A stretch of 64,000 nucleotides of DNA from Escherichia coli. GTDB taxonomy: Bacteria > Pseudomonadota > Gammaproteobacteria > Enterobacterales > Enterobacteriaceae. Position 1 is the stretch's first letter. Every line of letters starts with the position of its first letter. Of this stretch, positions 2-28,150 are shown piece by piece. The notes beneath the pieces are model-generated. The model was not told the DNA's origin, made no database searches, and saw only the letters and a program-made list of their open reading frames with translations. Both the position numbers and the translations under genes were made by a program. The DNA is taken from NCBI RefSeq assembly GCF_003790525.1, contig NZ_CP033635.1, one strand, 5' to 3'.

Positions 2-1819
2 GATTATCGTCTGGCGACGCCGGATCTGCGCATCGGTCTGCCGGAAACCAAACTGGGCATCATGCCGGGCTTTGGCGGTTCTGTACGTATGCCACGTATG
101 CTGGGCGCTGACAGTGCGCTGGAAATCATTGCCGCCGGTAAAGATGTCGGCGCGGATCAGGCGCTGAAAATCGGTCTGGTGGATGGTGTAGTCAAAGCAG
201 AAAAACTGATTGAAGGGGCGATGGCGATTTTACGCCAGGCCATTAACGGCGACCTCGACTGGAAAGCGAAACGTCAGCCGAAGCTGGAACCGCTAAAACT
301 GAGCGAGATTGAAGCCACCATGAGCTTCACCATCGCTAAAGGGATGGTCGCACAAACGGCGGGGAAACATTATCCGGCCCCCATCACCGCAGTAAAAACC
401 ATTGAAGCTGCGGCCCGTTTTGGTCGTGAAGAAGCCCTAAACCTGGAAAACAAAAGTTTTGTCCCGCTGGCGCATACCAACGAAGCTCGCGCACTGGTCG
501 GCATTTTCCTTAACGATCAATATGTAAAAGGCAAAGCGAAGAAACTCACCAAAGACGTTGAAACCCCGAAACAGGCCGCTGTGCTGGGCGCAGGCATTAT
601 GGGTGGCGGCATCGCTTACCAGTCTGCGTGGAAAGGCGTACCGGTTGTCATGAAAGATATCAACGACAAGTCGTTAACCCTCGGCATGACCGAAGCCGCG
701 AAACTGCTGAACAAGCAGCTTGAGCGCGGCAAGATCGATGGTCTGAAACTGGCTGGCGTGATCTCCACAATTCACCCAACGCTCGACTACGCCGGGTTTG
801 ACCGCGTGGATGTTGTGGTAGAAGCGGTTGTTGAAAACCCGAAAGTGAAAAAAGCCGTACTGGCAGAAACCGAACAAAAAGTACGCCCGGATACCGTACT
901 GGCGTCTAACACTTCAACCATTCCTATCAGCGAACTGGCCAACGCGCTGGAACGTCCGGAAAACTTCTGCGGGATGCACTTCTTTAACCCGGTCCACCGA
1001 ATGCCGTTAGTAGAAATTATTCGCGGCGAGAAAAGCTCCGACGAAACCATCGCGAAAGTCGTCGCCTGGGCGAGCAAGATGGGCAAAACGCCGATTGTGG
1101 TTAACGACTGCCCCGGCTTCTTCGTCAACCGTGTACTGTTCCCCTATTTCGCCGGTTTCAGCCAGTTGCTGCGCGACGGCGCGGATTTCCGCAAGATCGA
1201 CAAAGTGATGGAAAAACAGTTTGGCTGGCCGATGGGGCCGGCATATCTGCTGGACGTTGTGGGGATTGATACCGCGCATCACGCTCAGGCGGTGATGGCA
1301 GCAGGCTTCCCGCAGCGGATGCAGAAAGATTACCGCGATGCCATCGATGCGCTGTTTGATGCCAACCGTTTTGGTCAGAAGAACGGCCTCGGTTTCTGGC
1401 GTTATAAAGAAGACAGTAAAGGCAAGCCGAAGAAAGAAGAAGATGCCGTCGTTGACGACCTGCTGGCAGAAGTGAGCCAGCCGAAGCGCGATTTCAGCGA
1501 AGAAGAGATTATCGCCCGCATGATGATCCCGATGGTCAACGAAGTGGTGCGCTGTCTGGAAGAAGGCATTATCGCCACTCCAGCAGAAGCGGATATGGCG
1601 CTGGTCTACGGACTGGGGTTCCCTCCGTTCCACGGCGGCGCGTTCCGCTGGCTGGACACCCTCGGTAGCGCAAAATACCTCGATATGGCACAACAATATC
1701 AGCACCTCGGCCCGCTGTATGAAGTGCCGGAAGGTCTGCGTAATAAAGCGCGTCATAACGAACCGTACTATCCCCCGGTTGAGCCAGCCCGTCCGGTTGG
1801 CGACCTGAAAACGGCTTAA
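2..1819 (+). CDS. fadB: Fatty-acid oxidation complex alpha subunit FadB (enoyl-CoA hydratase / 3-hydroxyacyl-CoA dehydrogenase), 3' ~606 codons; N-terminus lies upstream of the window
   Basis: Frame is open from the window edge ([26 protein letters not shown]...); NAD-binding motif [10 protein letters not shown]; thiolase gene starts 9 bp after the stop. Confidence 0.95.
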
Positions 1820-2998: not shown

Positions 2999-3112
2999 GC
3001 CGGATGCGGCGTGAACGCCTTATCCGGTCTACCGATCCTGCACCAATATAGGCCTGATAAGACGCGCCAGCGTCGCATCAGGCATCGTGCACCGATTGCC
3101 GGATGCGACATA
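2999..3112. repeat. REP/BIME-type extragenic palindromes (GCCGGATGCGGCGTGAACGCCTTATCCGG units)
   Basis: Characteristic enterobacterial REP sequence read directly in the fadA-fre convergent intergenic region. Confidence 0.8.
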
Positions 3113-3152
3113 GATCTAAATGCCACTGTATAAAGTTTTAGTTGCCGTTCTT

Positions 3153-3177
3153 CCCGCCTGTCAGGGGCGGGTTTTTT
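3153..3177 (+). terminator. Rho-independent terminator downstream of fadBA
   Basis: GC stem CCCGCC...GGCGGG followed by a T6 run. Confidence 0.6.
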
Positions 3178-3182
3178 ATATC

Positions 3183-3884
3183 TCAGATAAATGCAAACGC
3201 ATCGCCAAACAGGCGATCTTCCCGCGCATTACGCTCGCTGCAAAACAGGTCACGGGCAATTTTCGCCATCTCAAAACGTCCGGCAATATAGATATCATGC
3301 TCTGCCAGCGTACCATGATCCTGCAATACCGCCGTTAACACGGTGCCAGTACGCCCACGCCAGCCCGCTTCCGGTTGTTCAACCACCGGCACCACTTGCA
3401 GACCAGGATGCTTCAACGAAAGCGCCTCAAGCTCGGAGAGATCATAAAGATGCTGCTCTTCACGCCCGCCCCAGTAAATGGTGATATCACGGTTTGGGTT
3501 ACGCGCCAGCGCCGTCAGCAAAATCGAGCGCGCATAAGAGAACCCGGTGCCACCCGCAATCAAAATCATCGGACGTTCTTCATCATCGCGCAGCCATGCC
3601 TCACCGTGCGGAATATCGACCACGATTTGATGATCTTTAAGAATGCGGTCCATGACTGCTTTCGCGTAAAGGTTGATTTCAGAAGCGCCAATATGCAGCT
3701 CGATGAACCCTTTTTCATCTGGCGTCGAAGCCATTGAGAACGGACGTTTGTCACGCTCATCCATCACTACCATCAAATACTGACCAGCACGAAAAGAAAA
3801 GGCCGCGTCTGGTACGATTCGGACACGGTATACGGTATCCGTGATAGCTTCTACCGAGGTCACTTTACAGCTTAAGGTTGTCAT
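3183..3884 (-). CDS. fre: NAD(P)H-flavin reductase Fre
   Basis: Translation [21 protein letters not shown]... matches Fre; the six-frame ORF extends 11 codons further upstream, start chosen at MTTLSC. Confidence 0.9.
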
Positions 3885-8544: not shown

Positions 8545-10787
<2,243 letters not shown>

Positions 10788-10800
10788 TTCCGGTCTCCTG

Positions 10801-11556
10801 TCAGAACTTATAACCACGATGCAACGCCACAACCCCTGCCGTCAGATTGTAGTAGTCGACACTTTCGAATCCGGCATCCTGCATCATGGCTTTCAGGGTA
10901 TCCTGATCGGGATGCATACGGATGGATTCTGCCAGATAACGGTAGCTGTCGGCGTCGTTCGCGACCAGTGAGCCAATACGCGGCAGCACATGGAAGGAGT
11001 ATGCATCATAGGCTTTGCTCAGCGGCTCGATAATTGGCTTCGAGAACTCAAGCACCAGCAGGCGGCCGCCGGGTTTCAGCACGCGATACATTGAACGCAG
11101 TGCTTTATCTTTGTCGGTGACGTTACGCAGACCAAACGAAATGGTGATGCAATCAAAGGTGTTATCCGGGAACGGCAGCGCCTCAGCGTTCGCTTGAACA
11201 TACTCAACGTTGCCAATCACACCGATATTACGCAGCTTCTCGCGTCCCATTTTGAGCATGGATTCATTGATATCAGCAAGGACCACTTTGCCAGTTTCTC
11301 CGACCAGGCGGGAGAATTTCGCTGTCAGGTCGCCGGTGCCACCAGCCAGATCCAGCACGGTCTGCCCACGGCGTACGCCGCTGCAATCAATCGTGAATCG
11401 CTTCCACAAACGATGAATACCGAATGACATCAAATCATTCATGACATCGTATTTTGATGCCACGGAATGGAAAACGTGAGCGACCATATCCGCTTTTTGT
11501 TCCTTCGCGACGGTCTGAAAACCAAAGTGCGTCGTTTCTTGTGACTTATCCACCAT
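10801..11556 (-). CDS. ubiE: Demethylmenaquinone/ubiquinone C-methyltransferase UbiE
   Basis: 251 aa, SAM-methyltransferase motif [10 protein letters not shown]. Confidence 0.95.
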
Positions 11557-15090: not shown

Positions 15091-15709
15091 GACGCTTTTG
15101 CAAAAAACCGGGTTAGTCGCCATTTTACGCGGCGTGAAACCGGATGAGATTGTCGCCATCGGTGAAAAACTGTACGCCGCCGGATTCCGCCTGATTGAGA
15201 TTCCTATGAACTCGCCGGAGGCGTTGCAAAGTATCAGTTTACTGCGCGACGCCCTGCCTAAGGATTGCCTGGTCGGAGCCGGAACTGTGCTTTCGGTAGA
15301 GCAGGTGGTTGCGGTTAAAGAGGCTGGGGGCCAGATTATCGTGATGCCGCATTGCGATACTGCGGTGATCCGTCGCGCCCGTGCGCTGGGTATGTATTGT
15401 GCGCCTGGCGTCGCCACGCCCACCGAAGCCTTTGCTGCCATTGAACATGGTGCTAATGCCATCAAGCTGTTCCCGGCTGAACAAATTACGCCAGAAGTTA
15501 CCAAAGCCTGGCGTGCGGTTATTCCACAATCCGTTCCGATGTTACCGGTTGGCGGTATCACACCGGAAACCATGGCGCGTTATCTGAGCCACGGCGCAAA
15601 CGGCTTTGGCCTCGGTTCTGCGCTATATCACCCCGGCATGACGCCAGAGCAAGTCTATGAAAATGCAGTACTGTTTATGAACGCATGGAACAATTTAAAT
15701 AGCAACTAA
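15080..15709 (+). CDS. 2-dehydro-3-deoxy-6-phosphogalactonate (KDPGal/KDPG-type) aldolase, DgoA-like
   Basis: LVAILRGVKPDE...IEIPMNSP...GAGTVL...CAPGVATPTEAF...GANAIKLFPA...PVGGITPE; start at MPFKTLL overlaps the kinase stop by 11 nt. Confidence 0.7.
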   Translation: MPFKTLLQKTGLVAILRGVKPDEIVAIGEKLYAAGFRLIEIPMNSPEALQSISLLRDALPKDCLVGAGTVLSVEQVVAVKEAGGQIIVMPHCDTAVIRRARALGMYCAPGVATPTEAFAAIEHGANAIKLFPAEQITPEVTKAWRAVIPQSVPMLPVGGITPETMARYLSHGANGFGLGSALYHPGMTPEQVYENAVLFMNAWNNLNSN

Positions 15710-15733
15710 CTGATAAATAAGGATATAAAAGCA

Positions 15734-16708
15734 ATGATAAAACATCTTACCTTACCGAAAAAAATGGCTGCAATGGTACTTCTTGCAGGCGCTGCCCTCA
15801 GCATTGCGCCTGTACAGGCAGCCTCCTACCCAACCAAACAGATCGAGTTAGTCGTTCCCTACGCTGCCGGAGGCGGTACGGATCTGGTTGCCCGTGCCTT
15901 TGCTGATGCCGCCAAAAACCATTTACCCGTCAGCATCGGGGTTATCAATAAACCTGGCGGAGGCGGTGCTATCGGCCTGAGTGAAATCGCCGCTGCCCGC
16001 CCTGGCGGTTACAAAATTGGTTTAGGCACGGTTGAACTGACCACCCTTCCCAGCCTCGGAATGGTGCGTTTTAAAACCAGCGATTTTAAACCCATTGCCC
16101 GTCTAAACGCGGATCCGGCTGCTATCACCGTCCGTTCTGATGCGCCGTGGAATAGCTATGAAGAATTTATGACTTACGCCAAAGCGAATCCCGGAAAAGT
16201 ACGCATTGGTAACTCAGGCACCGGAGCTATCTGGCATCTGGCGGCAGCTGCACTGGAAGACAAAACGGGTGCGAAGTTTTCTCATGTCCCGTATGACGGC
16301 GCAGCCCCTGCCATTACAGGCCTGTTAGGCGGGCATATTGAAGCGGTTTCCGTAAGCCCAGGAGAAGTTATCAACCATGTGAAAGGCGGCAAGCTGAAGA
16401 CACTGGTAGTGATGGCGGATGAGCGAATGAAAACCATGCCTGACGTCCCGACGTTAAAAGAGAAAGGCGTTGATCTCTCCATCGGCACCTGGCGCGGCCT
16501 GATTGTGTCGCAAAAAACGCCGCAGGATGTGGTGGATGTTCTGGCAAAGGCAGCAAAAGAGACGGCTGAAGAGCCTGCATTCCAGGATGCACTGCAAAAG
16601 TTGAATCTCAACTATGCATGGCTTGACGCTGCCAGCTTCCAGACCCAAATCAGCGAACAGGAAAAGTACTTTGACGAGTTGCTGACTCGCCTGGGCCTGA
16701 AAAAATAA
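15734..16708 (+). CDS. Tripartite tricarboxylate transporter (TTT) periplasmic substrate-binding protein, TctC/Bug family
   Basis: 324 aa with signal peptide (MIKHLTLPKKMAAMVLLAGAALSIAPVQA); characteristic YPTKQIELVVPYAAGGGTDL. Confidence 0.75.
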   Translation: MIKHLTLPKKMAAMVLLAGAALSIAPVQAASYPTKQIELVVPYAAGGGTDLVARAFADAAKNHLPVSIGVINKPGGGGAIGLSEIAAARPGGYKIGLGTVELTTLPSLGMVRFKTSDFKPIARLNADPAAITVRSDAPWNSYEEFMTYAKANPGKVRIGNSGTGAIWHLAAAALEDKTGAKFSHVPYDGAAPAITGLLGGHIEAVSVSPGEVINHVKGGKLKTLVVMADERMKTMPDVPTLKEKGVDLSIGTWRGLIVSQKTPQDVVDVLAKAAKETAEEPAFQDALQKLNLNYAWLDAASFQTQISEQEKYFDELLTRLGLKK

Positions 16709-16721
16709 ACCTGAGGTACGG

Positions 16722-17231
16722 TTGATGAACACAAAACAGTCTGTTGCTCAACTCGCCGTACCGCACCGCAAGCGCCTTTCATCAACGATGGTGGTGGCGC
16801 TGTTACTTTGTGTGGTTGCTGGCGCGGTGATGATTAATGCCGCTGATTTTCCAGCAACTGCCATTGAAACGGATCCCGGTGCAAGTGCCTTCCCTACCTT
16901 CTATGCCTGTGCCCTGATTGTGCTCGCTGTCTTGCTGGTGATACGCGATCTTTTGCAGGCAAAACCAGCCTCTTGCGCCAACGCACAGGAAAAACCGGCA
17001 TTCAGGAAAACGGCAACAGGAATTGCGGCAACCGCGTTTTATATTGTGACGATGAGCTACTGCGGTTATCTCATTACTACTCCTGTTTTCCTCATCGTCA
17101 TTATGACGTTGATGGGCTACAGGCGATGGGTACTCACACCGGGTATTGCGCTGCTGTTAACGGCAATCCTCTGGTTGCTGTTTGTCGAAGCGTTACAGGT
17201 GCCATTGCCTGTCGGCACATTTTTCGAATAA
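16722..17231 (+). CDS. TTT small membrane subunit, TctB-like
   Basis: 169 aa, four predicted TM helices, immediately between TctC-like and TctA-like genes. Confidence 0.65.
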   Translation: MMNTKQSVAQLAVPHRKRLSSTMVVALLLCVVAGAVMINAADFPATAIETDPGASAFPTFYACALIVLAVLLVIRDLLQAKPASCANAQEKPAFRKTATGIAATAFYIVTMSYCGYLITTPVFLIVIMTLMGYRRWVLTPGIALLLTAILWLLFVEALQVPLPVGTFFE

Positions 17232-17243
17232 CAGGGGCCAGCA

Positions 17244-18734
17244 ATGTTTGAAAGTGAACTTTTAACTCAGGGTTTTTCGACATTACTCAATAATCCTCAG
17301 GCGCTGCTGTTTGCCACTTTTGGGGTGATGCTGGGTATTGTGATTGGCGCTTTGCCTGGTCTGACAGCGACCATGGGTGTGGCGATTTTGCTGCCTTTCA
17401 CCTACGGCATGGAGCCTGTTTCTGGCTTGTTGATGATTTGCGGCGTCTTTTTTGGTGGCGTCTACGGTGGTTCTATCACCGCAATTTTGCTCAAAATTCC
17501 CGGAACGCCTGCCGCCGCAGCCACCGCTATTGATGGTTATGAGCTGACGAAACAGGGAAAAGCAGGGCTGGCATTGAGTGCCGCCACGTTCTCTTCCTTT
17601 AGTGGCGGAACGCTCAGCATTATCGTGCTGATGTTTCTCTCTCCGGTACTTGCCAGTTGGGCGCTGAAATTTAGTGCCTCGGAGTCCTTCGCCCTGGCAA
17701 CCTTCGGACTGAGCATTATTGCCAGTATTTCCGGTGAGTCACTGATTAAAGGGCTGATTGCCGGGGTTGGCGGATTGCTGATCGCAACGATAGGCCTTGA
17801 TCCAATGGGCGGTTTTCCACGGTTTACAGGTGGATTTGTGGAGCTGATGAATGTGCCATTTATCCCGGTGATGATTGGTTTATTTGCTGCTTCAGAAGCA
17901 TTCCGCTCTATGGAGCAAAACCAGCAAATTCGTCAGGGGGCGAAGGTGGCTATCGGCAGTCTGTTACTGCCCTGGCAAACACTACGCCGCATTGCATTAA
18001 CCATTTTGCGCTCATCAGGATTAGGGGTTTTTATCGGCATGATCCCCGGTGCGGGGGCGGATATTGCAGCTTTTGTTGCCTATAACGAAACTCGTCGTTT
18101 CAGTAAGACACCAGAAAACTTTGGTAAGGGTGAAATTAAAGCTGTGGCCTCCTGTGAGGCAGGCGCGAATGGCTGCACCGGTGGCGCATTGTTACCTATG
18201 CTGACGCTGGGGATCCCTGGCGATGCGGTAACCGCCATCATGCTGGGCGCGTTAACGTTACAGGGAATGCAACCAGGCCCGCTGATGTTTACCGACCACG
18301 GCGATATGGTTTATACACTGTTTGTCGGCATGATCTTCTGTTACTTCATGCTACTAGTTCTTGGACTGCTCTCTTTGAAAGTCATCGGTAATGTGGTGAA
18401 AATTCCCGGCAATATTCTCACACCGATGATCCTCGCACTTTGTGTGGTCGGGACTTATGCGTTGAACAATAGCCTGTTTGATGTTGGCATTATGCTGATT
18501 GCAGGCGTGGTGGGCTATTTCATGCAGAAAGGAGGATATCCGGCATCACCCGTAGTGCTGGCATTGATTATGGGGCCAATGGCGGAAAGTAATTTTCGCC
18601 GTGCGCTGTCGCTTTCTGGTGGGTCACTCGACTTTCTGTATACCCGACCGATAACTCTGGCATTGCTGACTCTGGCAGCCTTTACGCTACTGACGCCAAT
18701 AATCCGCAAAATAATGCGTTTACGGCGTCAATAA
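17244..18734 (+). CDS. TTT large permease subunit, TctA-like
   Basis: 496 aa polytopic membrane protein with duplicated G-rich motifs (LPGLTATMGVAILLP / IPGAGADIAAFVAYNE). Confidence 0.75.
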   Translation: MFESELLTQGFSTLLNNPQALLFATFGVMLGIVIGALPGLTATMGVAILLPFTYGMEPVSGLLMICGVFFGGVYGGSITAILLKIPGTPAAAATAIDGYELTKQGKAGLALSAATFSSFSGGTLSIIVLMFLSPVLASWALKFSASESFALATFGLSIIASISGESLIKGLIAGVGGLLIATIGLDPMGGFPRFTGGFVELMNVPFIPVMIGLFAASEAFRSMEQNQQIRQGAKVAIGSLLLPWQTLRRIALTILRSSGLGVFIGMIPGAGADIAAFVAYNETRRFSKTPENFGKGEIKAVASCEAGANGCTGGALLPMLTLGIPGDAVTAIMLGALTLQGMQPGPLMFTDHGDMVYTLFVGMIFCYFMLLVLGLLSLKVIGNVVKIPGNILTPMILALCVVGTYALNNSLFDVGIMLIAGVVGYFMQKGGYPASPVVLALIMGPMAESNFRRALSLSGGSLDFLYTRPITLALLTLAAFTLLTPIIRKIMRLRRQ

Positions 18735-19793: not shown

Positions 19794-20603
19794 ATGGCAA
19801 CAACACAACAATCTGGATTTGCACCTGCTGCATCGCCTCTCGCTTCGACCATCGTTCAGACTCCGGACGACGCGATTGTGGCGGGCTTCACCTCTATCCC
19901 TTCACAAGGGGATAACATGCCTGCTTACCATGCCAGACCAAGGCAAAGCGATGGCCCACTGCCAGTGGTCATTGTAGTGCAGGAAATTTTTGGCGTGCAT
20001 GAACATATCCGCGATATTTGTCGCCGTCTGGCGCTGGAGGGGTATCTGGCTATCGCACCTGAACTTTACTTCCGCGAAGGCGATCCGAATGATTTTGCCG
20101 ATATCCCTACGCTGCTTAGCGGTCTGGTAGCAAAAGTGCCTGACTCGCAGGTGCTGGCCGATCTCGATCATGTCGCCAGTTGGGCTTCCCGCAACGGCGG
20201 CGATGTTCATCGTTTAATGATCACCGGATTCTGCTGGGGTGGACGTATCACCTGGCTGTATGCCGCGCATAATCCACAACTGAAAGCAGCGGTGGCATGG
20301 TACGGCAAATTAACCGGCGATAAGACGCTGAATTCACCGAAACAACCTGTTGATATCGCAACCGATCTTAACGCGCCGGTTCTCGGCTTATATGGTGGTC
20401 AGGATAACAGCATTCCGCAAGAGAGTGTGGAAACGATGCGCCAGGCGCTGCGGGCAGCAAACGCGAAAGCAGAGATTATCGTGTACCCGGATGCAGGGCA
20501 TGCGTTCAACGCCGATTATCGTCCGAGCTATCATGCCGAGTCTGCGAAAGACGGCTGGCAGCGAATGTTGGAATGGTTTACACAGTATGGTGTTAAAAAG
20601 TAA
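19794..20603 (+). CDS. ysgA: Dienelactone hydrolase-family protein (carboxymethylenebutenolidase-like) YsgA/DlhH
   Basis: MATTQQSGFAPAASPLASTIVQTPDDAIV... alpha/beta hydrolase; RBS ggag before the chosen ATG. Confidence 0.85.
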   Translation: MATTQQSGFAPAASPLASTIVQTPDDAIVAGFTSIPSQGDNMPAYHARPRQSDGPLPVVIVVQEIFGVHEHIRDICRRLALEGYLAIAPELYFREGDPNDFADIPTLLSGLVAKVPDSQVLADLDHVASWASRNGGDVHRLMITGFCWGGRITWLYAAHNPQLKAAVAWYGKLTGDKTLNSPKQPVDIATDLNAPVLGLYGGQDNSIPQESVETMRQALRAANAKAEIIVYPDAGHAFNADYRPSYHAESAKDGWQRMLEWFTQYGVKK

Positions 20604-20669
20604 CGCCATAGTCGCTAAATCTGATGATTAAGCTCACACAATTTCAACGATTTTTTTAATCTCAAAACC

Positions 20670-20698
20670 ATACAGCATCAAAAAATTTGTTGCTGTAT
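20670..20698. promoter_or_regulatory. Perfect inverted repeat ATACAGCA-N13-TGCTGTAT, with a related direct-repeat copy (AAAAATTTcGTTGCTGT) ~70 bp downstream; candidate operator upstream of the accessory operon
   Basis: Read directly in the 256-bp ysgA / hydrolase intergenic region. Confidence 0.45.
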
Positions 20699-20859
20699 GC
20701 CACTCTTTGACTCCCTTCACATTCGTCATCACACCACCTGCTGAATGCAAAAATTTCGTTGCTGTGCGGCAAACTTTTTTCCTGTTTTGTGCCGCTTTTC
20801 TCCTGAATACTCGTTCTCAGAACAACTGGATCGTTTAAACATCAGACAGGAGATTTACC

Positions 20860-21528
20860 ATGACGCAATCCATTTTTCAGGCTCAACCCTTTGAATTACC
20901 TTTTGATCCGCGCACAACTGCACTGGTCATGATCGACATGCAGCGTGACTTTGTCGAAGCAGGGGGCTTCGGTGAGGCACTGGGCAATGATGTTTCACTG
21001 GTACGCACGGCTATCGCACCATGTACAGAGGTGCTGGCAGCCGCACGTCAAAAAGGAATTATGGTTATTCATACTCGTGAAGGCCATCGTGCAGACTTAA
21101 GCGACTGCCCGCCAGCCAAACTGACGCGCGGCGGAAAAACCTTTATTGGTGAACCAGGACCGATGGGACGCATTCTGGTCAGAGGTGAAGCAGGTCATGA
21201 CATCATTCCTGAACTGTACCCGGTGGCAGGCGAACCGGTGATTGATAAGCCTGGCAAAGGCGCGTTTTATCAAACCGACTTACATCTGATTTTGCAAAAC
21301 CACGGTATCAAGACGCTGATAGTTTGTGGTGTTACAACCGAAGTTTGCGTAACCACCACCGTGCGCGAAGCAAATGATCGTGGCTATGAATGCATTATCC
21401 CGGAAGATTGTGTCGGCTCCTATTTCCCGGAATTCCAGAAATACGCCCTCGAGATGATCAAAGCACAAGGTGCCATTTTCGGTTGGGTTACTGATTCCAA
21501 AGCCATTATTGCAGGCCTGGAAGGCTAA
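20860..21528 (+). CDS. Isochorismatase-family cysteine hydrolase (amidohydrolase of RutB / biuret-hydrolase / N-carbamoylsarcosine amidase type)
   Basis: 222 aa; ALVMIDMQRDF (Asp), conserved Lys, LIVCGVTTEVCV (nucleophile Cys); RBS aggag. Confidence 0.75.
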   Translation: MTQSIFQAQPFELPFDPRTTALVMIDMQRDFVEAGGFGEALGNDVSLVRTAIAPCTEVLAAARQKGIMVIHTREGHRADLSDCPPAKLTRGGKTFIGEPGPMGRILVRGEAGHDIIPELYPVAGEPVIDKPGKGAFYQTDLHLILQNHGIKTLIVCGVTTEVCVTTTVREANDRGYECIIPEDCVGSYFPEFQKYALEMIKAQGAIFGWVTDSKAIIAGLEG

Positions 21529-21533
21529 CACCG

Positions 21534-22394
21534 ATGGTACAGGTTACGCTTTGCGCATCGTCGTTGGGATATCTTTTCCCGCAGAATGAAACGCAAGATT
21601 TACGTCTACATAGCGCTTTTAAACATGCGGTAAATCTGTATTCAGACGCGGGAACATTCATCACTCTGTTGTGTGCGCAAACGTATCTGAATCTCCCTGA
21701 TGCAGCCAGAGTCTGGCTACCTGAATGTTGGGACTGGCGAAGAGAGATTGCCCATTCAGATCCCATTCAGTTAACCCCAGGCTTACTGCGGACACCTCGA
21801 TTTTGTGTGGCGCTCGAAAACGCAACGCTCTGGCAGTCGCCATTTGTGGGGGGAATGCTGACACTTGAGGCATTCCCTTTGGTTTTCCAGCACTACCCAA
21901 CGATGGCATCGCAACGGCTTTTATTTTGTCTGGAACATAACGTTCAAAGCACATTGCACCTGCCGGATAGTCTCACGCACCAGGGATTAGCGATTATGGA
22001 GCATCCAGATGCGCTGGAACGCCAGGTGCCACAACTGATCGGCTTTGGTAAAGGCTTAACGCCCGATGGAGATGACTATTTGTTGGGCTATCTGGCAGCA
22101 CTCTGGTTATGGCAACTCCCTGCACCACTTGCCGATCATCAATACCGGTTGCAGCAGGTAATTGATCAACATGCGCACAACACCACGGATATCAGTCGTC
22201 ATTATCTGGAGCGTGCGCTTCAGGGACATTTTTCAGAACCGATTTGCCAGTTACTCGCACAACTGGTTGGGAGTGCATCGGCAATGACAATCGCATCCTG
22301 TGCAGAACAGGTCATGCAATTTGGCGCAACGTCAGGAGTAGATTGCCTTGCAGGAATGCTGCATGGCTTTCGAACCCTGAACACCATAAATTGA
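21534..22394 (+). CDS. DUF2877-like protein (YlbF/AllH-like component of the FdrA module)
   Basis: 286 aa; assignment from family resemblance and position beside FdrA-like and DUF1116-like genes; the least secure assignment in the cluster. Confidence 0.5.
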   Translation: MVQVTLCASSLGYLFPQNETQDLRLHSAFKHAVNLYSDAGTFITLLCAQTYLNLPDAARVWLPECWDWRREIAHSDPIQLTPGLLRTPRFCVALENATLWQSPFVGGMLTLEAFPLVFQHYPTMASQRLLFCLEHNVQSTLHLPDSLTHQGLAIMEHPDALERQVPQLIGFGKGLTPDGDDYLLGYLAALWLWQLPAPLADHQYRLQQVIDQHAHNTTDISRHYLERALQGHFSEPICQLLAQLVGSASAMTIASCAEQVMQFGATSGVDCLAGMLHGFRTLNTIN

Positions 22395-22488
22395 TTTCAA
22401 CCTTTTCTCCCGTAGCCCGTTTATGGGGCTACACGGGGATGCTTTGCCCGAATTTTGCTATCGGGCGGAATGAAACAGGCGTAACAGC

Positions 22489-24048
22489 ATGAAAGTTAAA
22501 TATAAAGTTTTCAGTAATCTTTATCAGGACTCAGTTTCTCTGATGCAGATTTCCGCGCAAATCAGCAAGTTGCCCGGTATTCAACAGGCCTCGGTCGTCA
22601 TGGGAACACCCAATAATCTCGAGCAATTGAGCGATGCGGGTCTGGGTAACGAAATCAACGCCAGTCCCAATGATTTAGTGATTGCAGTCATGGGTGAAGA
22701 AGATATTTGCAATGAAGCACTGGTACTGGCCCAGCAACGTCTGACCAGCAAACCCGATGATGAAACGGATAGTGGCATTAAAACACCGGAAAAGGTCAGC
22801 CTGGAAATGGCACTGGAAGCCGAGCCCGAAGCCAACCTGGCACTCATTTCTGTACCGGGAGACTACGCCGCCGCCGAAGCAATTAAAGCGTTAAACCTCG
22901 GAATGAACGTGATGATGTTCAGCGATAACGTCAGTATCGTGCAGGAAAAATCCATCAAAACGCTTGCCCGAGAACGTCAGCGCATCGTAATGGGACCTGA
23001 CTGTGGAACCGCCATTGTTAACGGCATTCCGTTAGGCTTCGCTAATGTGGTGAAACGCGGAGCAATTGGTGTTATTGGCGCGTCAGGCACCGGGCTACAG
23101 GAAGTGACTTGCCGAATCGACCAGCTCGGAGCGGGTATTTCTCAGGCGTTGGGAACAGGCGGACATGATCTCAGTGAAGAGATTGGTGGAATATCGATGC
23201 TCTTCGCTTTAGATGCGCTGGCGCAAGACGATGAAACTCGCGTGATTGTGCTTATTTCAAAACCGCCTTCACCGATCGTTGCCCGGACTATTCTGGAGCG
23301 TGCCGAGGCTTGTGGAAAACCCGTGGTGGTGAATTTCCTCGGTGCGAATCCGCATGATCTGGCACGTCCCAATATCACCGCGGCCACCACACTTGCCAGC
23401 GCCGCAAATATCGCCGTGGCGTTACTGAATGATCAACCACTTCCGACTATCGAGACCGAAATTTCCTGCGACGATCTCACAATGTTACAAAACGCCTGCC
23501 AGCGCCTGCCAGCCCATCGCCAGGCGATACGCGGTGTTTTCGCCGGAGGAACCTTCTGCTACGAAGCGCAACTTATCTGCCAACAAAAGGGATTCAGCGC
23601 AGCCTCCAATACGCCAGTTGCGGGTAATCGTGCTCTGGCAAATATCTGGCAAAGCGAAGATCACACGTTGATCGATATGGGCGACGATGATTTCACCCGT
23701 GGCAAACCGCATCCAATGATCGACCCGACTCTGCGCAATCAACGTCTGCTCAACGAACTCAACGACTCACACACTGCCGTCGTGTTATTCGACCTGGTAC
23801 TTGGTTATGGCGCTTCCACGACGCCTGCCAGCGAATTACTGGACCAACTTTCACACATCGACATGAATAACGCACCGTTGCTGATTGCGCACGTTTGCGG
23901 AACGGAAGCTGATCCGCAAATACGCAGTCAGCAGATAAGCGCACTACAAAATGCAGGGGTCATCATCGCCAGCAGCAATGCACAGGCGGCGTTATGGGCC
24001 AGCACCGTTGCACAGACTCAGTTGCAGAAAAAGGGGCTAAACGCATGA
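22489..24048 (+). CDS. FdrA-like protein (succinyl-CoA synthetase alpha-like / acyl-CoA synthetase-like fold)
   Basis: 519 aa; MMFSDNV, VMGPDCGT, GVIGASGTG, HPMIDPTLRNQ motifs typical of FdrA/AllF family. Confidence 0.75.
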   Translation: MKVKYKVFSNLYQDSVSLMQISAQISKLPGIQQASVVMGTPNNLEQLSDAGLGNEINASPNDLVIAVMGEEDICNEALVLAQQRLTSKPDDETDSGIKTPEKVSLEMALEAEPEANLALISVPGDYAAAEAIKALNLGMNVMMFSDNVSIVQEKSIKTLARERQRIVMGPDCGTAIVNGIPLGFANVVKRGAIGVIGASGTGLQEVTCRIDQLGAGISQALGTGGHDLSEEIGGISMLFALDALAQDDETRVIVLISKPPSPIVARTILERAEACGKPVVVNFLGANPHDLARPNITAATTLASAANIAVALLNDQPLPTIETEISCDDLTMLQNACQRLPAHRQAIRGVFAGGTFCYEAQLICQQKGFSAASNTPVAGNRALANIWQSEDHTLIDMGDDDFTRGKPHPMIDPTLRNQRLLNELNDSHTAVVLFDLVLGYGASTTPASELLDQLSHIDMNNAPLLIAHVCGTEADPQIRSQQISALQNAGVIIASSNAQAALWASTVAQTQLQKKGLNA

Positions 24049-25469
24049 ATACCTTATTTAATCAGCCTTTGAAGGTTGTGAACGCGGGACTACACAGTTT
24101 TGCTGACAATATTCAACATGCCGGGGGAAGCGCAATTGCACTCAACTGGCAGCCACCAGCACAAGGCGATATTGACGCTGGATTGGATCTGGCATCGTTG
24201 CTACGTCATCCCCTGGTAGAAAATGCCAACCAAATCGCCATGACACGTTATCTCGAAGCACAGCCCGTGCTGGTGGATGTCATGCTCGCTAAAGAGGCCA
24301 TTCCAGAAATGGCTGAACAAAAACGTATTTTGCACTCTGGCCCGCCGATTGCCTGGGAAGAGATGTGTGGTCCGGTAAAAGGGGCGATTATTGGTGCCAT
24401 GCTGTACGAAGGTTGGGCCACCAGCCAGCAAGACGCTGAAAACCAAATAAACGCAGGCGAAATCGACCTTGCCCCTTGTCATCATTATCACGCGGTTGGC
24501 CCAATGGCAGGCATCATCAGCCCGTCGATGCCGTTATGGGTGGTAGAAAACAAAACCAACGGCCACCGTACTTTTAGCAATTTCAATGAAGGTCTGGGTA
24601 AGGTTCTCCGTTTTGGCGCCAATAACGATGAAGTTCTCAATCGTCTGGCCTGGATGCGCGATGAACTGGCGCCGGCAATGAAAGCAGCAATCGCACAACA
24701 CGGCGAGCTGGAACTCAAGCCATTAATGGCGCAGGCGCTGCATATGGGGGATGAAGTTCATAACCGCAATGCTGCCGCTACCGGTTTGCTGATTAAGCGC
24801 CTGCTCCCGGCATTGCTGGCCTGCTCTCTTCCACAGGAACATATCCAGCGCGTCGTGGCATTTATCACCGGTAACGATCACTTCTTCCTCAATCTTTCGA
24901 TGGCCGCCTGTAAAGCAATGATGGATGCCGCCGCCAATGTACCGTTCAGTTCAATGGTTACGGTGATGGCGCGTAACGGGGTGAATTTTGGTATTCGGCT
25001 TTCCGGTACTGGCGATCGCTGGTTCCAGGCTCCTGCCAATGCCGTTGAAGGTCTGTTCTTCCCCGGATTTGGCGTCGACGATGCCGCTGCTGACCTGGGT
25101 GATAGCGCAATTACTGAAACCGCAGGTGTGGGTGGCTTCGCGATGGCGTCGTCTCCGGCGATCGTCAAATTTGTGGGAGGCACCCCTGCCGATGCCACCA
25201 ATAACAGCCGTCGGATGCAAGCCGTCACCCTCGGCGGTAACCCCGCATTTACACTTCCAGCCCTCAATTTTGCCCCCACCGCAGCAGGGATTGATGCGCG
25301 TAAAGTGACCGATCGCGGCATTTTACCGGTCATCAATACGGGTATCGCCCACAAACAAGCGGGGGTCGGGCAAATTGGTGCCGGGATCACCACTGCGCCG
25401 ATGGCCTGTTTTGTCGCCGCTGTACGTGCACTGGCGGAGATCGTCGCAAAGGAGAACCATCATGGTTAA
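24045..25469 (+). CDS. DUF1116-like protein (YlbE/AllG-like)
   Basis: ~474 aa; start ATG overlaps the FdrA-like stop (ATGA), so translationally coupled. Confidence 0.6.
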   Translation: MNTLFNQPLKVVNAGLHSFADNIQHAGGSAIALNWQPPAQGDIDAGLDLASLLRHPLVENANQIAMTRYLEAQPVLVDVMLAKEAIPEMAEQKRILHSGPPIAWEEMCGPVKGAIIGAMLYEGWATSQQDAENQINAGEIDLAPCHHYHAVGPMAGIISPSMPLWVVENKTNGHRTFSNFNEGLGKVLRFGANNDEVLNRLAWMRDELAPAMKAAIAQHGELELKPLMAQALHMGDEVHNRNAAATGLLIKRLLPALLACSLPQEHIQRVVAFITGNDHFFLNLSMAACKAMMDAAANVPFSSMVTVMARNGVNFGIRLSGTGDRWFQAPANAVEGLFFPGFGVDDAAADLGDSAITETAGVGGFAMASSPAIVKFVGGTPADATNNSRRMQAVTLGGNPAFTLPALNFAPTAAGIDARKVTDRGILPVINTGIAHKQAGVGQIGAGITTAPMACFVAAVRALAEIVAKENHHG

Positions 25470-26418
25470 GCCACTGGCTGTCGTCGCGGTTGGCGGCAAT
25501 GCGCTCATTCAGGACGAGCAACGCAATAGTATTCCCGATCAATATGTTGCAGTGATGGAAAGCGTGCAGCATATCGTTGATATGGTTGAAGCCGGATGGG
25601 ACCTGGTGCTAACCCACGGTAATGGCCCGCAGGTGGGCTTTATTCTGCGCCGCTCTGAACTCGCCAGTAACGAAGTTTCTCCGGTTCCACTTGATTACGC
25701 CGTGGGTGATACACAAGGTGCAATTGGCTACATGTTCCAGAAAGCACTGCATAACGAATTGGCTCGCCGTGGCATAAACAAACCGGTAATTGCCCTGGTG
25801 ACACAAACGCGAGTCAGCCCACATGACGATGCTTTCGCCAGCCCCAGTAAACCAATTGGCGCGTTTCTCGATGAAGCAACGGCCCAACAACGCCAACAAC
25901 AACTCGGCTGGACGCTGATGGAGGACGCCGGGCGTGGTTGGCGGCGTACAGTTCCCTCTCCTGCCCCACTGGAAGTTATTGAGCACGACACCATCGCTCA
26001 CCTGGTGCGCCAGGGATATCTGGTTATTGCCTGCGGCGGCGGCGGTATTCCGGTGGTGCGAGACGGACAACAACTGAAAGGTGTAGAAGCCGTGATCGAT
26101 AAAGATCTGGCCTCCGCGCTGCTCGCCAGTCAGTTAGGCGCAGATCTGCTGGTGATCCCCACCGGTGTAGAAAAAGTGGCGATTAACTTTGGTACACCAC
26201 AACAACAGTGGCTCGACGCTATCAGCGTTGCCGAAGCGCAAACGCTGTTGCGGGAAGGTCAGTTTGGTGTCGGCAGTATGCAACCCAAAGTGGAAGCCAT
26301 TGTTGATTTCATCAATGCCAGCCAGCAACAAGGCAAACAGGCCAGCGGCCTGATTACTTCACCGCAAACCATAAAAGCAGCCCTGGCGCATCAGAGCGGT
26401 ACATGGATAACCCTTTAA
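25462..26418 (+). CDS. Carbamate kinase
   Basis: MVKPLAVVAVGGNALIQ... amino-acid-kinase fold, THGNGPQVG, IACGGGGIPVV; RBS aggag; overlaps the upstream gene by 8 nt. Confidence 0.8.
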   Translation: MVKPLAVVAVGGNALIQDEQRNSIPDQYVAVMESVQHIVDMVEAGWDLVLTHGNGPQVGFILRRSELASNEVSPVPLDYAVGDTQGAIGYMFQKALHNELARRGINKPVIALVTQTRVSPHDDAFASPSKPIGAFLDEATAQQRQQQLGWTLMEDAGRGWRRTVPSPAPLEVIEHDTIAHLVRQGYLVIACGGGGIPVVRDGQQLKGVEAVIDKDLASALLASQLGADLLVIPTGVEKVAINFGTPQQQWLDAISVAEAQTLLREGQFGVGSMQPKVEAIVDFINASQQQGKQASGLITSPQTIKAALAHQSGTWITL

Positions 26419-26434
26419 TTCTCTGGAGAACACA

Positions 26435-26824
26435 ATGACTACAACGCTTTTAGCCGTTAACGGAACGCTGATGCGCGGCCTGGAACTCAACCCAAATATG
26501 CAAAAAGCGGGCGGTATTTTTGTCCGTGAAGACCGAACTGACGCCCATTACCGGTTGTGGAGTATTAATGATCGCCATCCGGGAATGATTCGCGTGAATG
26601 AAGGAGGAACACACGTCGACGTAGAAATTTGGCAATTACCGCTGGCCAGTTTTGCCGCTCTGTTAATGAGCGAACCCGCTGGGCTGGCAATTGGCAAAAT
26701 CAAACTTGCCGATGGTAGCGAAGTGCTGGGCGTACTGGCAGAAAACTGGCTGACCGAAGGCCAACGGGAAATTACAGAACTGGGTAGCTGGCGCAAATAC
26801 ACCGGGCATTTTCATACTGTGTAA
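26435..26824 (+). CDS. Gamma-glutamylcyclotransferase-like (AIG2/GGCT fold) protein
   Basis: 129 aa; N-terminal AVNGTLMRG resembles the YGSLM-type GGCT motif. Confidence 0.55.
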   Translation: MTTTLLAVNGTLMRGLELNPNMQKAGGIFVREDRTDAHYRLWSINDRHPGMIRVNEGGTHVDVEIWQLPLASFAALLMSEPAGLAIGKIKLADGSEVLGVLAENWLTEGQREITELGSWRKYTGHFHTV

Positions 26825-26849
26825 CGCGCATTTATAAAGGGAACATACT

Positions 26850-28073
26850 ATGCGTAAAAAAGAAGAGAATCTGAATACGGCATCAGGATTGCGTATTGCC
26901 ATGATTTTGCTGGGTATTGCCGTCACACCTGTGCTGTTGTCATCCTCAAGCCTCGGCAATCAACTTTCCAGCGGCAGTTTAATTAGCGTCGTATTGTTAG
27001 GCGGCGTCATTCTGACCTTACTTTCAGCCATCACCATTAGCGTGGGAGAAAAAGCCCGCCTACCAACGTATGGCATTGTGAAATATTCGTTTGGCGAAAA
27101 AGGGGCCATCGCCATTAACATTTTGATGGCGATAAGTCTGTTCGGCTGGATTGCCGTTACCGCCAATATGTTTGGTCATTCGGTACATGACTTACTGGCT
27201 CAACATGGACTGGAAGTTCCACTGGCACTGTTAGTGGCGGCTGGCTGTGTCATTTTTGTCGCCTCTACGGCATTTGGCTTTGCCGTTCTGGGAAAAATTG
27301 CCCAGGTTGCCGTGCCGGTTATCGCGCTGGTGCTGTGTTACATCCTCTATGTGGCAACCCATACCGAAGTGGCAGTACCAGCGGCGATTGTGGAGATGAA
27401 TACAGGTGTCGCCGTTTCCACCGTTGTTGGCACCATTATTGTGCTGGTTGCCACACTGCCTGATTTCGGTAGTTTTGTGCATAACCGCAAACATGCGCTG
27501 ATTGCCGCAGGCGTGACGTTTCTGGTTGCCTACCCTCTGCTCTACTGGGCGGGTGCAACGCCGAGCGCCATTAGTGGTCAGGGATCTTTACTGGGTGCGA
27601 TGGCGGTATTCGGTGCGGTTCTGCCTGCGGCGCTGTTGTTGATTTTCGCCTGCGTCACCGGTAACGCGGGCAATATGTTCCAGGGCACGCTGGTGGTTTC
27701 CACACTGCTTACCCGCTTTCCCAAATGGCAGATTACCGTGGCGCTGGGTATCCTTTCCGCCATCGTAGGCAGTATGGATATTATGGCGTGGTTTATTCCG
27801 TTTCTGCTGTTCCTGGGTATCGCCACGCCACCCGTTGCCGGAATTTATATCGCTGACTTTTTCTTTTATCGCCGTAATGGCTATCAAGAGTCAGTGTTAG
27901 CCCAGGAGTCACAGATTAAAGTGCTGACATTCGCAGCATGGATCATAGGCGCAGCGGTTGGCTTTATGACCGTAAAAGGCTTATTCACCCTGACGACGAT
28001 CCCTTCGGTAGACTCGATTCTGGTGGCATGTATCGCTTATGCGATTCTCAGTCGGGCAAGTCAACACCGCTAA
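26850..28073 (+). CDS. NCS1-family nucleobase/cytosine-type permease (CodB-like)
   Basis: 407 aa, ~12 TM helices, overall similarity to purine-cytosine permeases. Confidence 0.7.
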   Translation: MRKKEENLNTASGLRIAMILLGIAVTPVLLSSSSLGNQLSSGSLISVVLLGGVILTLLSAITISVGEKARLPTYGIVKYSFGEKGAIAINILMAISLFGWIAVTANMFGHSVHDLLAQHGLEVPLALLVAAGCVIFVASTAFGFAVLGKIAQVAVPVIALVLCYILYVATHTEVAVPAAIVEMNTGVAVSTVVGTIIVLVATLPDFGSFVHNRKHALIAAGVTFLVAYPLLYWAGATPSAISGQGSLLGAMAVFGAVLPAALLLIFACVTGNAGNMFQGTLVVSTLLTRFPKWQITVALGILSAIVGSMDIMAWFIPFLLFLGIATPPVAGIYIADFFFYRRNGYQESVLAQESQIKVLTFAAWIIGAAVGFMTVKGLFTLTTIPSVDSILVACIAYAILSRASQHR

Positions 28074-28150
28074 TTCCTGGGTATACTCAGGCAATGATTA
28101 CGGCTGAATCTGGAGAGATTCAGCCACTTTACCACTGACCAGGAAGCCTT

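Follow-up and report, generated by a model that had tools for sequence, protein, structure and literature searches.

A putative LysR-type and CRP control region upstream of an accessory catabolic operon in Escherichia coli

The 256-bp gap that precedes the accessory catabolic operon described here is probably (we put the probability at about 0.7) a control region on which a LysR-type regulator and CRP would act through a proximal and a distal module. The model is based on sequence conservation, on the spacing of the conserved elements, on the co-occurrence of the boxes with a regulator gene and on the match to the validated operator of PunR, and from these we predict binding by the regulator, where transcription starts, which way expression is changed and what the distal box does. 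The gap lies within a stretch of 64,000 nucleotides of E. coli DNA, identical to strain SMS-3-5 and referred to below as the window, and all promoter positions are counted from a predicted start at about 20818, 7 nt past the -10 hexamer, and not from a mapped start (Table 1).

The operon belongs to an accessory block of eight genes, every one on the + strand, inserted between ysgA and metE. In about 1553 of 5426 complete E. coli genomes (~29%) at least 80% of this block was present; it makes up half of the 16-kb 'tkt1 island' of B2 extraintestinal pathogens (PMC3349570) and corresponds to 'GR29' of strain BEN2908 (PMC12928451). The seven genes of the operon most likely serve an uncharacterised function in the breakdown of nitrogen compounds, and the 129-aa protein that one of them encodes resembles the C-terminal domain of allophanate hydrolase. 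The remaining gene is the sole regulator gene of the block, and it lies 7.3 kb downstream of the control region and co-directional with the operon. As had been pointed out in the first-pass annotation, the gap between the ysgA stop codon (20603) and the hydrolase ATG (20860) is the only sizeable one in the block (256 bp, the others being 94 and 77 bp). It was confined to island-bearing genomes and missing where the island was missing, which indicates that the gap is part of the island and not of ysgA. A diverged copy of the whole cluster was found on more than 100 E. coli plasmids, its proteins being 91-98% identical and its regulatory region just 68% identical. A search of the literature returned no study of the regulation of the island and no binding, transcription-start or expression data for it.

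Table 1. Features of the control region and of the accessory block (positions in the window; distances from the predicted start).
Feature	Position	Strand	Sequence or description	Remarks
ysgA	stop at 20603		dienelactone hydrolase family	left neighbour of the 256-bp gap
Left edge of conserved regulatory region	20623-20638	.	conserved TCACA at 20634-20638	weak CRP-like left half GATGA
Site 0	20645-20660	-	third, weaker inverted copy, CAACGATTTTTTTAAT	31-32 bp upstream of site 1; centre -165.5
Site 1, putative distal LysR-type box	20669-20699	.	palindrome	outer 4-6 nt of each arm specific to Escherichia
Site 1, conserved 19-nt core	20675-20693		GCATCAA-AAAAT-TTGTTGC	centre 20684, ~-134
CRP-like site	20706-20721	.	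TTTGA-CTCCCT-TCACA	centre 20713.5, ~-104.5; between sites 1 and 2
Site 2, putative proximal LysR-type box	20742-20764	+	consensus CTGCAAAAtwTTCGtyGCTG	position of a recognition site
Site 2, 19-nt register	20744-20762	+	AATGCAA-AAATT-TCGTTGC	centre 20753, ~-65
Conserved block	20771-20785	+	AAACTTTTTTCCTGT; family consensus AAATCATTTCGCTGT	overlaps the -35 region, ~-47 to -33
Predicted -10 hexamer	20806-20811	+	AATACT	TATACT in most genera
Ribosome-binding site	20848-20853	+	AGGAGA	conserved; ahead of the hydrolase ATG at 20860
Operon, seven genes	20860-28073	+	BiuH/TrtA-like cysteine hydrolase to NCS1 permease	
Cysteine hydrolase	20860-21528	+	BiuH/TrtA-like; triuret/biuret-hydrolase-like amidase	first gene of the block
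Block genes 2-4		+	DUF2877, FdrA-like, DUF1116, in this order	oxamate-transcarbamylase-like trio
Block genes 5-7		+	carbamate kinase, 129-aa protein, NCS1 'cytosine' permease, in this order	
LysR-type regulator, WP_000470717.1	28151-29047	+	PunR/AllS subfamily	predicted binder of the boxes

The boxes and the predicted promoter

A perfect inverted repeat with a 13-nt spacer, and a second copy of it about 70 bp downstream, had been reported in the gap in the first-pass annotation and both are present. The arms ATACAGCA (20670-20677) and TGCTGTAT (20691-20698) are separated by exactly 13 nt, and AAAAATTTGTTGCTGT at 20681-20696 has its counterpart AAAAATTTCGTTGCTGT at 20749-20765, with an in-register offset of 69 bp. 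In 217 of 2000 dinucleotide shuffles of the gap there was a perfect inverted repeat of 8 nt with at most 20 nt between its arms, which makes such a repeat weak as evidence. The repeat is longer than first noted, with 14-nt arms containing one mismatch around a 3-nt centre (20669-20682 / 20686-20699), and arms of at least 14 nt with at most one mismatch were seen in none of 2000 shuffles of this A/T-rich gap, the largest arm being 13. In the 64-kb window the 19-nt dyad pattern was matched with 0-1 mismatch only at the palindrome, and with three mismatches at the chance rate (24 observed against 30 expected). The 41-nt segment around the palindrome was located at a single place per genome in 1501 E. 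coli genomes, where it is unannotated, and a dispersed repeat of the REP or MITE kind was rejected on this ground. The similarity of the direct copy extends over 30 nt, of which 23 are identical, and only one of 500 shuffles scored equally. By eye, the 3' flanks of the two boxes are unlike each other in Citrobacter.

When about 80 orthologous clusters were aligned the conserved core read GCAkCAA-N5-TTGmTGC (GCATCAA-N5-TTGyTGC in Enterobacterales), while the outer 4-6 nt on each side (ATACAG/CTGTAT) were specific to Escherichia and not kept in other genera. The predicted functional unit is thus the inner 19-23 nt and not the 'perfect' outer arms. Compared with the T-N11-A motif, site 1 (TCAA-N5-TTGT) and site 2 (GCAA-N5-TCGT) both depart at the last base, and the left half of site 2 is degenerate. 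The operator of PunR in K-12 departs likewise (TCAA-N5-TTGC), and in Vibrio, Shewanella and Amantichitinum the family-wide core TCAA-N5-TTGA agrees with T-N11-A.

A conserved -10 hexamer follows the centre of site 2 at a distance of 53 nt, with an AAAC..CTGT block in between. In Enterobacterales this block has the form AAAyyrTTT..CTGT, with CTGT invariantly 35 nt from the start of site 2, and from its position we infer that it may be an activation binding site. The ATACT of the -10 hexamer was invariant in 21 of 22 Enterobacterales sequences, and the predicted start near 20818-20819 falls on a conserved CAG (20818-20820). A sigma-70 consensus scan of the gap gave no canonical -35/-10 pair, as would be expected for an activator-dependent promoter. 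Relative to the predicted start, the putative recognition site lies near -65 and the putative activation site overlaps -35.

Both copies are most likely operator boxes for the LysR-type regulator of the island, judging from a core that is conserved where the regulator accompanies the cluster and that matches the core of the PunR operator. To this extent the earlier reading of the two copies as a regulator-binding site paired with an activation site was borne out; the pairing itself does not hold, since the copies are 69 bp apart, too far for one LysR tetramer to use them as its recognition and activation sites. The downstream copy is itself a recognition-type box at about -65, with its own activation-like block (20771-20785) and -10 hexamer. 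The palindrome would then be an auxiliary distal box at about -134, a position that is unusual for a LysR-type regulator.

Upstream of the palindrome, site 0 appeared in the Enterobacterales alignment as the conserved block CAACnATTTTTTT (20645-20657) and may be a companion subsite of the distal box. Sites 1 and 0, three turns apart at 31-32 bp, resemble a second pair of recognition and activation sites. That the distal module arose as an inverted duplication of the promoter module was rejected, given that its reverse complement matched the proximal module at the level of chance (53 of 500 shuffles equal), and a leftward promoter at the distal module was likewise rejected because no -10 was consistently conserved to the left of TCACA (20634-20638).

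The CRP-like site matches 9 of the 10 core positions of TGTGA-N6-TCACA, with the right half TCACA at 20717-20721. Its form in the alignment was wTGm-N7-TCACA, in which the half-sites are 11 nt apart from start to start and thus have the canonical N6 spacing. Of 21 Enterobacterales sequences, 17 had a site with at most two core mismatches at this same position, 39.5-40.5 or 50.5-51.5 nt ahead of the proximal box; the chance expectation is 0.15 per 330 nt. In the Vibrio group related sites preceded the proximal box by 29.5-30.5 nt. The invariant right half is of the CRP type and not of the FNR type; FNR was rejected by eye for this reason and because the order of its half-sites was wrong. Neither this site nor the third box upstream had been mentioned in the first-pass annotation.

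Conservation of the boxes and of the regulator gene

Loci with close relatives of the hydrolase were detected in 319 cases, of which 80 were fetched and the cluster genes were mapped onto those 80. The gene order hydrolase-DUF2877-FdrA-DUF1116-carbamate kinase-129-aa protein-permease was kept in Enterobacterales, Vibrionaceae, Shewanella, Burkholderiales, Neisseriales and Xanthomonadales. In about 50 of the 80 loci a regulator gene accompanied the cluster, either at the 3' end and co-directional (Enterobacterales, most Burkholderiales and Dyella), directly upstream and co-directional (the Vibrio/Photobacterium/Shewanella group), or divergent (Neisseriales and Pseudovibrio), in which last case one box is common to the regulator and the operon. 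It was missing in mycobacteria, Chloroflexi, several metagenome-assembled genomes and some Caballeronia. That the LysR gene is co-directional and stands at the far end of the block had been called atypical, which is correct, and this placement is not evidence against a link because the same regulator is found directly upstream or divergent in other lineages. A divergent, autoregulated regulator gene was not found in E. coli and occurred only in the relatives from Neisseriales and Pseudovibrio; such an arrangement is common among LysR systems and not obligatory. No box was found upstream of the regulator gene, which in Enterobacterales seems to be served by a -10-like element and an insulating hairpin of its own.

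The upstream regions of 22 Enterobacterales were aligned and gave sharply bounded conserved blocks amid variable sequence, namely TCACA (20634-20638), site 0, site 1, the CRP-like site, site 2, AAAyyrTTT..CTGT, ATACT, CAG and the ribosome-binding site. Among these sequences the distances were 41-42 nt from site 1 to TCACA, 31-32 nt from site 0 to site 1, and 59-60 nt from site 2 to the -10 hexamer (64 in two sequences). The centres of sites 1 and 2 were 69-71 bp apart in 17 sequences and 79-81 bp apart in 5, a difference of one helical turn, and all of the length variation came from a one-turn insertion between the CRP-like site and site 2. Given that the spacing of the two sites changes by one turn, their helical phase is kept.

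Outside Enterobacterales, the proximal box was found in nearly all lineages that have the regulator. A box followed by a AAATCATTTCGCTGT-like block and a -10 hexamer about 51-53 nt from the box centre was seen in Vibrionaceae, Shewanella, Silvimonas, Amantichitinum, Dyella and Caballeronia, and the same proximal layout, shifted by 10 nt, in Neisseriales. The Vibrio/Photobacterium/Shewanella group has a separate distal box 100-103 bp upstream of the proximal one, and Betaproteobacteria have the proximal box without a distal box. This recurrence of the same proximal module in distant lineages, including those without a distal box, suggests that the downstream copy is the universal promoter-proximal box of the recognition type and that the palindrome is additional to it.

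The same survey bears on the possibility that the palindrome and site 0 are a relic of an ancestral divergent promoter or autoregulatory operator, only the proximal box being at work in E. coli. The divergent regulator with its shared box in Neisseriales and Pseudovibrio, the regulator directly upstream in Vibrionaceae and the lone proximal box of Betaproteobacteria are all compatible with such a history. Site 1 is moreover degenerate in the plasmid copy of the island, where its left half is lost (CATTTGAAAAAAGTTG), which indicates that the distal box may be dispensable. However, site 0, site 1 and their spacings were kept in at least 20 genera of Enterobacterales in which nothing is divergently transcribed, the spacing to the proximal box changes in 10-bp steps, and the Vibrio/Photobacterium/Shewanella group also has a distal box. 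We therefore regard a relic as unlikely.

The regulator and its predicted PunR-type box

The best NCBIfam matches of the regulator were PunR (287 bits, 2e-85) and AllS (214 bits). The score of 287 bits is below the PunR equivalog cut-off of 345 bits and the regulator is therefore a paralogue of PunR and not its orthologue; it is 35% identical to K-12 PunR over 292 residues. By sequence comparison, PunR is the closest named relative of the island protein. The predicted recognition helix KVPSAISYT(I/V)KK(A/L)EE was almost invariant in the cluster-linked regulators, even at 39-50% identity, and its shorter form KVPSAISYT(I/V)KK equals RVPSAVSYTVRQ of PunR, the longer form matching RVPSAVSYTVRQLEE.

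The operator of PunR, TsttwTCAAwAwwwTTGaaGGCA, is an imperfect palindrome of 23 bp; phylogenetic footprinting was used to define it, and ChIP-exo, fluorescence polarisation and EMSA bore it out (PMC8376909). The core of site 1 (TCAA-AAAAT-TTG) and the family-wide box have the same core and spacing as TCAA-W5-TTG of PunR and differ from it in the flanks; in a manual comparison of site 1 with the 23-nt motif, 13 of 13 core positions and 2 of 10 flanking positions matched. In K-12 a TACACT hexamer is found 53 nt downstream of the centre of the PunR box, which is the geometry of site 2.

A 23-nt position matrix was trained on Enterobacterales only and then applied to the other lineages. Of the loci with the regulator, 27 of 31 scored above the 95th background percentile, against 3 of 29 of those without it, a contrast that is confounded by phylogeny and G+C content. 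The contrast nevertheless holds within the single genus Caballeronia. Loci with the regulator have a box at the promoter position there, whereas 4 of 6 loci without it have no box and in the other 2 the sole match above background lies about 57 nt from the ATG. Among the Caballeronia loci without the regulator, L038 has a decayed remnant of a box; at L039 the cluster is wedged between flhF and flhA with no regulator nearby and no box.

The resemblance to PunR raises the question whether the main binder in vivo is host PunR, or another paralogue of the PunR/AllS type, which would link the island to the availability of purines. Every E. coli has PunR, which could bind or compete, the 13-nt core TCAA-W5-TTG is identical to the validated one and the recognition helices are almost the same. 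The flanks, on the other hand, agree with the PunR motif at only 2 of 10 positions (tGGTTt../..gcAGGCA in PunR, CAGCAt../..ttGCTG at site 1), and the box travels with the island regulator across phyla and decays where this regulator is missing. We consider host PunR or such a paralogue quite unlikely to be the main binder.

If the palindrome acted instead in RNA, as a hairpin, terminator or stabiliser of the ysgA transcript, its position 66 nt past the ysgA stop codon, its fold of -14.7 kcal/mol (z-score -5.7) and the absence of any other evident terminator in a scan downstream of ysgA could be accounted for, although a good fold is to be expected of any palindrome. The stem is A/U-rich with no U-tract after it (GCCACUCUUUGACU), however, and the scan called no intrinsic terminator there; the element is a part of the island, not of ysgA. 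In other genera, where the genes upstream are unrelated, it is the sequence of the half-sites that is conserved (CAA/TTG invariant), and most relatives retain the same T/C position that does not pair, the reverse of what compensatory change would give. The distance from the palindrome to the promoter elements is also fixed, and a function in RNA is very improbable. An apparent compensatory change in the plasmid copy (ATAAACA...TGTTTAT against ATACAGCA...TGCTGTAT) was rejected since 7-nt arms are expected by chance (mean best arm in shuffles 7.6), and these arms were also rejected as evidence for structure because the conserved left half-site is lost there. As to known structured RNAs, the sole Rfam match was Mu-gpT-DE at 20801-20862, with 19.8 bits against a gathering score of 49, and was rejected.

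That the A/T-rich dyads are sites for IHF or Fis, or plain bent DNA with no specific regulator, is similarly improbable: the boxes are rich in A-tracts and lie within an upstream activating region, and CATCAAAAAATTTG resembles the IHF consensus WATCAANNNNTTR, but in nearly all sequences the TTG is one nucleotide off the IHF register (ATCAA-N5-TTG), a dimeric helix-turn-helix protein would account for the symmetric G+C-rich flanks (GCA..TGC) and the two-fold symmetry, and the box co-occurs with the regulator gene. Other binders were rejected by eye, PurR because the central CG is missing, an ArgR box because of wrong spacing, and Nac (ATA-N9-TAT), NtrC and sigma-54 (-24/-12) elements because none fits or is conserved.

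Proposed mechanism and known systems

In the control region as we propose it, the LysR-type regulator of the island would bind the dyad boxes through the core TCAA-N5-TTG. The proximal box (centre 20753) and the block at 20771-20785 would form a pair of recognition and activation sites, and the regulator bound to this pair would activate a sigma-70 promoter whose -10 (AATACT) is good and whose -35 is poor. A pathway substrate or intermediate presumably serves as the inducer. CRP-cAMP bound at about -104.5 would co-activate the promoter and add catabolite control. The palindrome exceeds the other boxes in symmetry and would therefore presumably be bound most tightly, and together with site 0 it could hold a second dimer or tetramer of the regulator. 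The distal and proximal complexes may then interact, probably across CRP-bent DNA, with either raised occupancy or a repressing loop as the result.

The conserved helical phase of the distal relative to the proximal module suggests that the two complexes communicate. The distance between sites 1 and 2 corresponds to about n+0.6 turns at 10.5 bp per turn and a simple loop on the same face is not obvious. A more elaborate version, which we put forward as doubtful, is that the three LysR-type boxes and two CRP-like sites (-187.5, -165.5, -134, -104.5 and -65) hold a phase-locked complex of two regulator tetramers over CRP-bent DNA, a loop switch that would repress without inducer and activate with inducer; alternatively, and as tentatively, a leftward, unannotated transcript that runs antisense to the 3' end of ysgA might be driven from the distal module. 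A phase-locked loop switch of this kind is undescribed for the PunR/AllS subfamily.

In classical LysR promoters such as those of BenM, CbnR and OccR the recognition site lies near -65 and the activation sites near -35. The predicted promoter is like these in its dyad at about -65, a less symmetric block reaching -35, a poor -35 and its expected dependence on an activator. It is unlike them in having an extra box of high symmetry at about -134 with a companion subsite and a CRP-like site in between, and in the regulator gene, which is not divergent but 7.3 kb downstream and co-directional.

The closest parallel to a single box is the PunR (YdhB) operator of the punR-punC promoter (PMC8376909), which is bound by a regulator of the same LysR subfamily with a near-identical recognition helix and has a TCAA-W5-TTG core within an imperfect palindrome of about 23 bp, centred about 53 nt before a -10-like hexamer (~-65). 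PunR is an activator of a gene for the transport or utilisation of a nitrogen compound, with adenine as effector (PMC8376909). Unlike in the PunR system, the flanking half-site bases are different, the regulator gene is not divergent from its target, and the island has two to three boxes and a CRP-like site in front of a seven-gene catabolic operon.

A far-upstream site is known for AllS, which binds upstream of allFGHK (fdrA-ylbE-ylbF-ybcF) of E. coli K-12 with a centre at -181 from the ATG, with ArcA sites between the AllS site and the allFGHK promoter (PMC12535856). Both systems have a LysR-type regulator of the same subfamily, an operon with homologues of FdrA, DUF1116, DUF2877 and carbamate kinase, a distant site (-176 from the ATG for site 1) and sites for a global regulator in between. 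They differ in that this global regulator is ArcA there and CRP-like here, and in the placement of the AllS gene relative to its operon. No TCAA-N5-TTG box was seen by eye in the AllS-bound allD-allF gap of K-12.

Taken as a whole, the proposed region would be a bacterial switch of a common type, new to this island. With the predicted promoter, the set of operators and the regulator there is a direct experimental handle on the inducer of an island often found in pathogenic E. coli, and via the inducer on its substrate. The PunR-type box would be extended to a third paralogous regulon, and the system may serve as a natural test case of how paralogous LysR regulators with a shared core box avoid cross-talk.

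The gap between the permease and regulator genes

The gene for the LysR-type regulator follows the operon on the same strand, and the gap that separates it from the NCS1 permease gene contains a conserved -10-like element and a hairpin (see table). The pairing of this hairpin is kept while its sequence varies by genus (Edwardsiella, Buttiauxella and Serratia), and in Rahnella and Silvimonas it takes the form of a canonical terminator with a T-run. Together, the conserved -10-like element and the pairing-conserved hairpin or terminator after the permease gene suggest that the regulator gene forms a unit of its own, probably constitutive and insulated from the operon. The gap contains no LysR-type box (core TCAA-N5-TTG).

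Coordinates of features in the island and of the plasmid-borne copy
Feature	Coordinates	Remarks
Permease-LysR gap	window 28074-28150	
-10-like TATACT	28082-28087	conserved as GGTATA(C/A)T, immediately 3' of the permease stop
Hairpin GGCTGAATC/GATTCAGCC	28102-28125	downstream of the -10-like element
Gap between DUF2877 and fdrA-like gene, within the operon	window 22395-22488	94 bp
Plasmid copy, L002 (pEF5-18-41_2)	3020-3315 and 10593-11483	

Other hairpins and repeats

Inside the DUF2877/fdrA-like gap lies a G+C-rich hairpin, CCCGTAGCCC-GTTTAT-GGGGCTACACGGGG (about 22410-22439), which has no T-run 3' of it and could be an element for RNA processing or stabilisation. The entire regulatory region between ysgA and the hydrolase gene is flanked on both sides by a 12-nt inverted repeat, TCTGATGATTAA / TTAAACATCAGA (window 20620-20631 and 20835-20846), which is complementary at 11/12 positions. 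Other genera do not share this repeat, and it has probably arisen by chance.

Copies of the cluster elsewhere and a neighbouring islet

The complete cluster also occurs in diverged form on more than 100 E. coli plasmids, adjoining a truncated nikB and IS1. Identity is 91-98% for the proteins of this copy but only 68% for its regulatory region, its distal box (the upstream palindrome) lacks the left half-site, and its regulator carries PSTISYTL in place of PSAISYTI, substitutions in a recognition helix that is invariant elsewhere. In Caballeronia sordidicola (L039, 7743-19553) the cluster has inserted between two flagellar genes, flhF (SRP54-type GTPase) and flhA (FHIPEP), and has neither regulator nor box; a sigma-factor gene and a MinD/ParA-like gene are found upstream. 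A contig titled Chryseobacterium sp. 18061, in all probability a contaminated or mislabelled record, has a cluster and regulatory region of Enterobacterales type, both very near those of Buttiauxella izardii.

Upstream of and beside udp lie the genes of a Bug/TctB/TctA tripartite tricarboxylate transporter (window about 15700-18734), which correspond to a small accessory islet that PMC3349570 places between udp and rmuC.

Hydrolase and predicted pathway

The closest solved relatives of the hydrolase are 6xix/6xj4 ('cysteine hydrolase', a triuret hydrolase) and two biuret hydrolases, 6xjm and 5bk6. BiuH is the top NCBIfam match, with a score under the cut-off. The hydrolase is accompanied by the AllFGH-like trio (DUF2877, FdrA-like and DUF1116 proteins), a carbamate kinase, a protein resembling the allophanate hydrolase C-terminal domain and the NCS1 permease (window 20860-28073). 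These relatives and this gene set suggest that the operon encodes a predicted ATP-yielding pathway for a ureide or carbamoyl compound.
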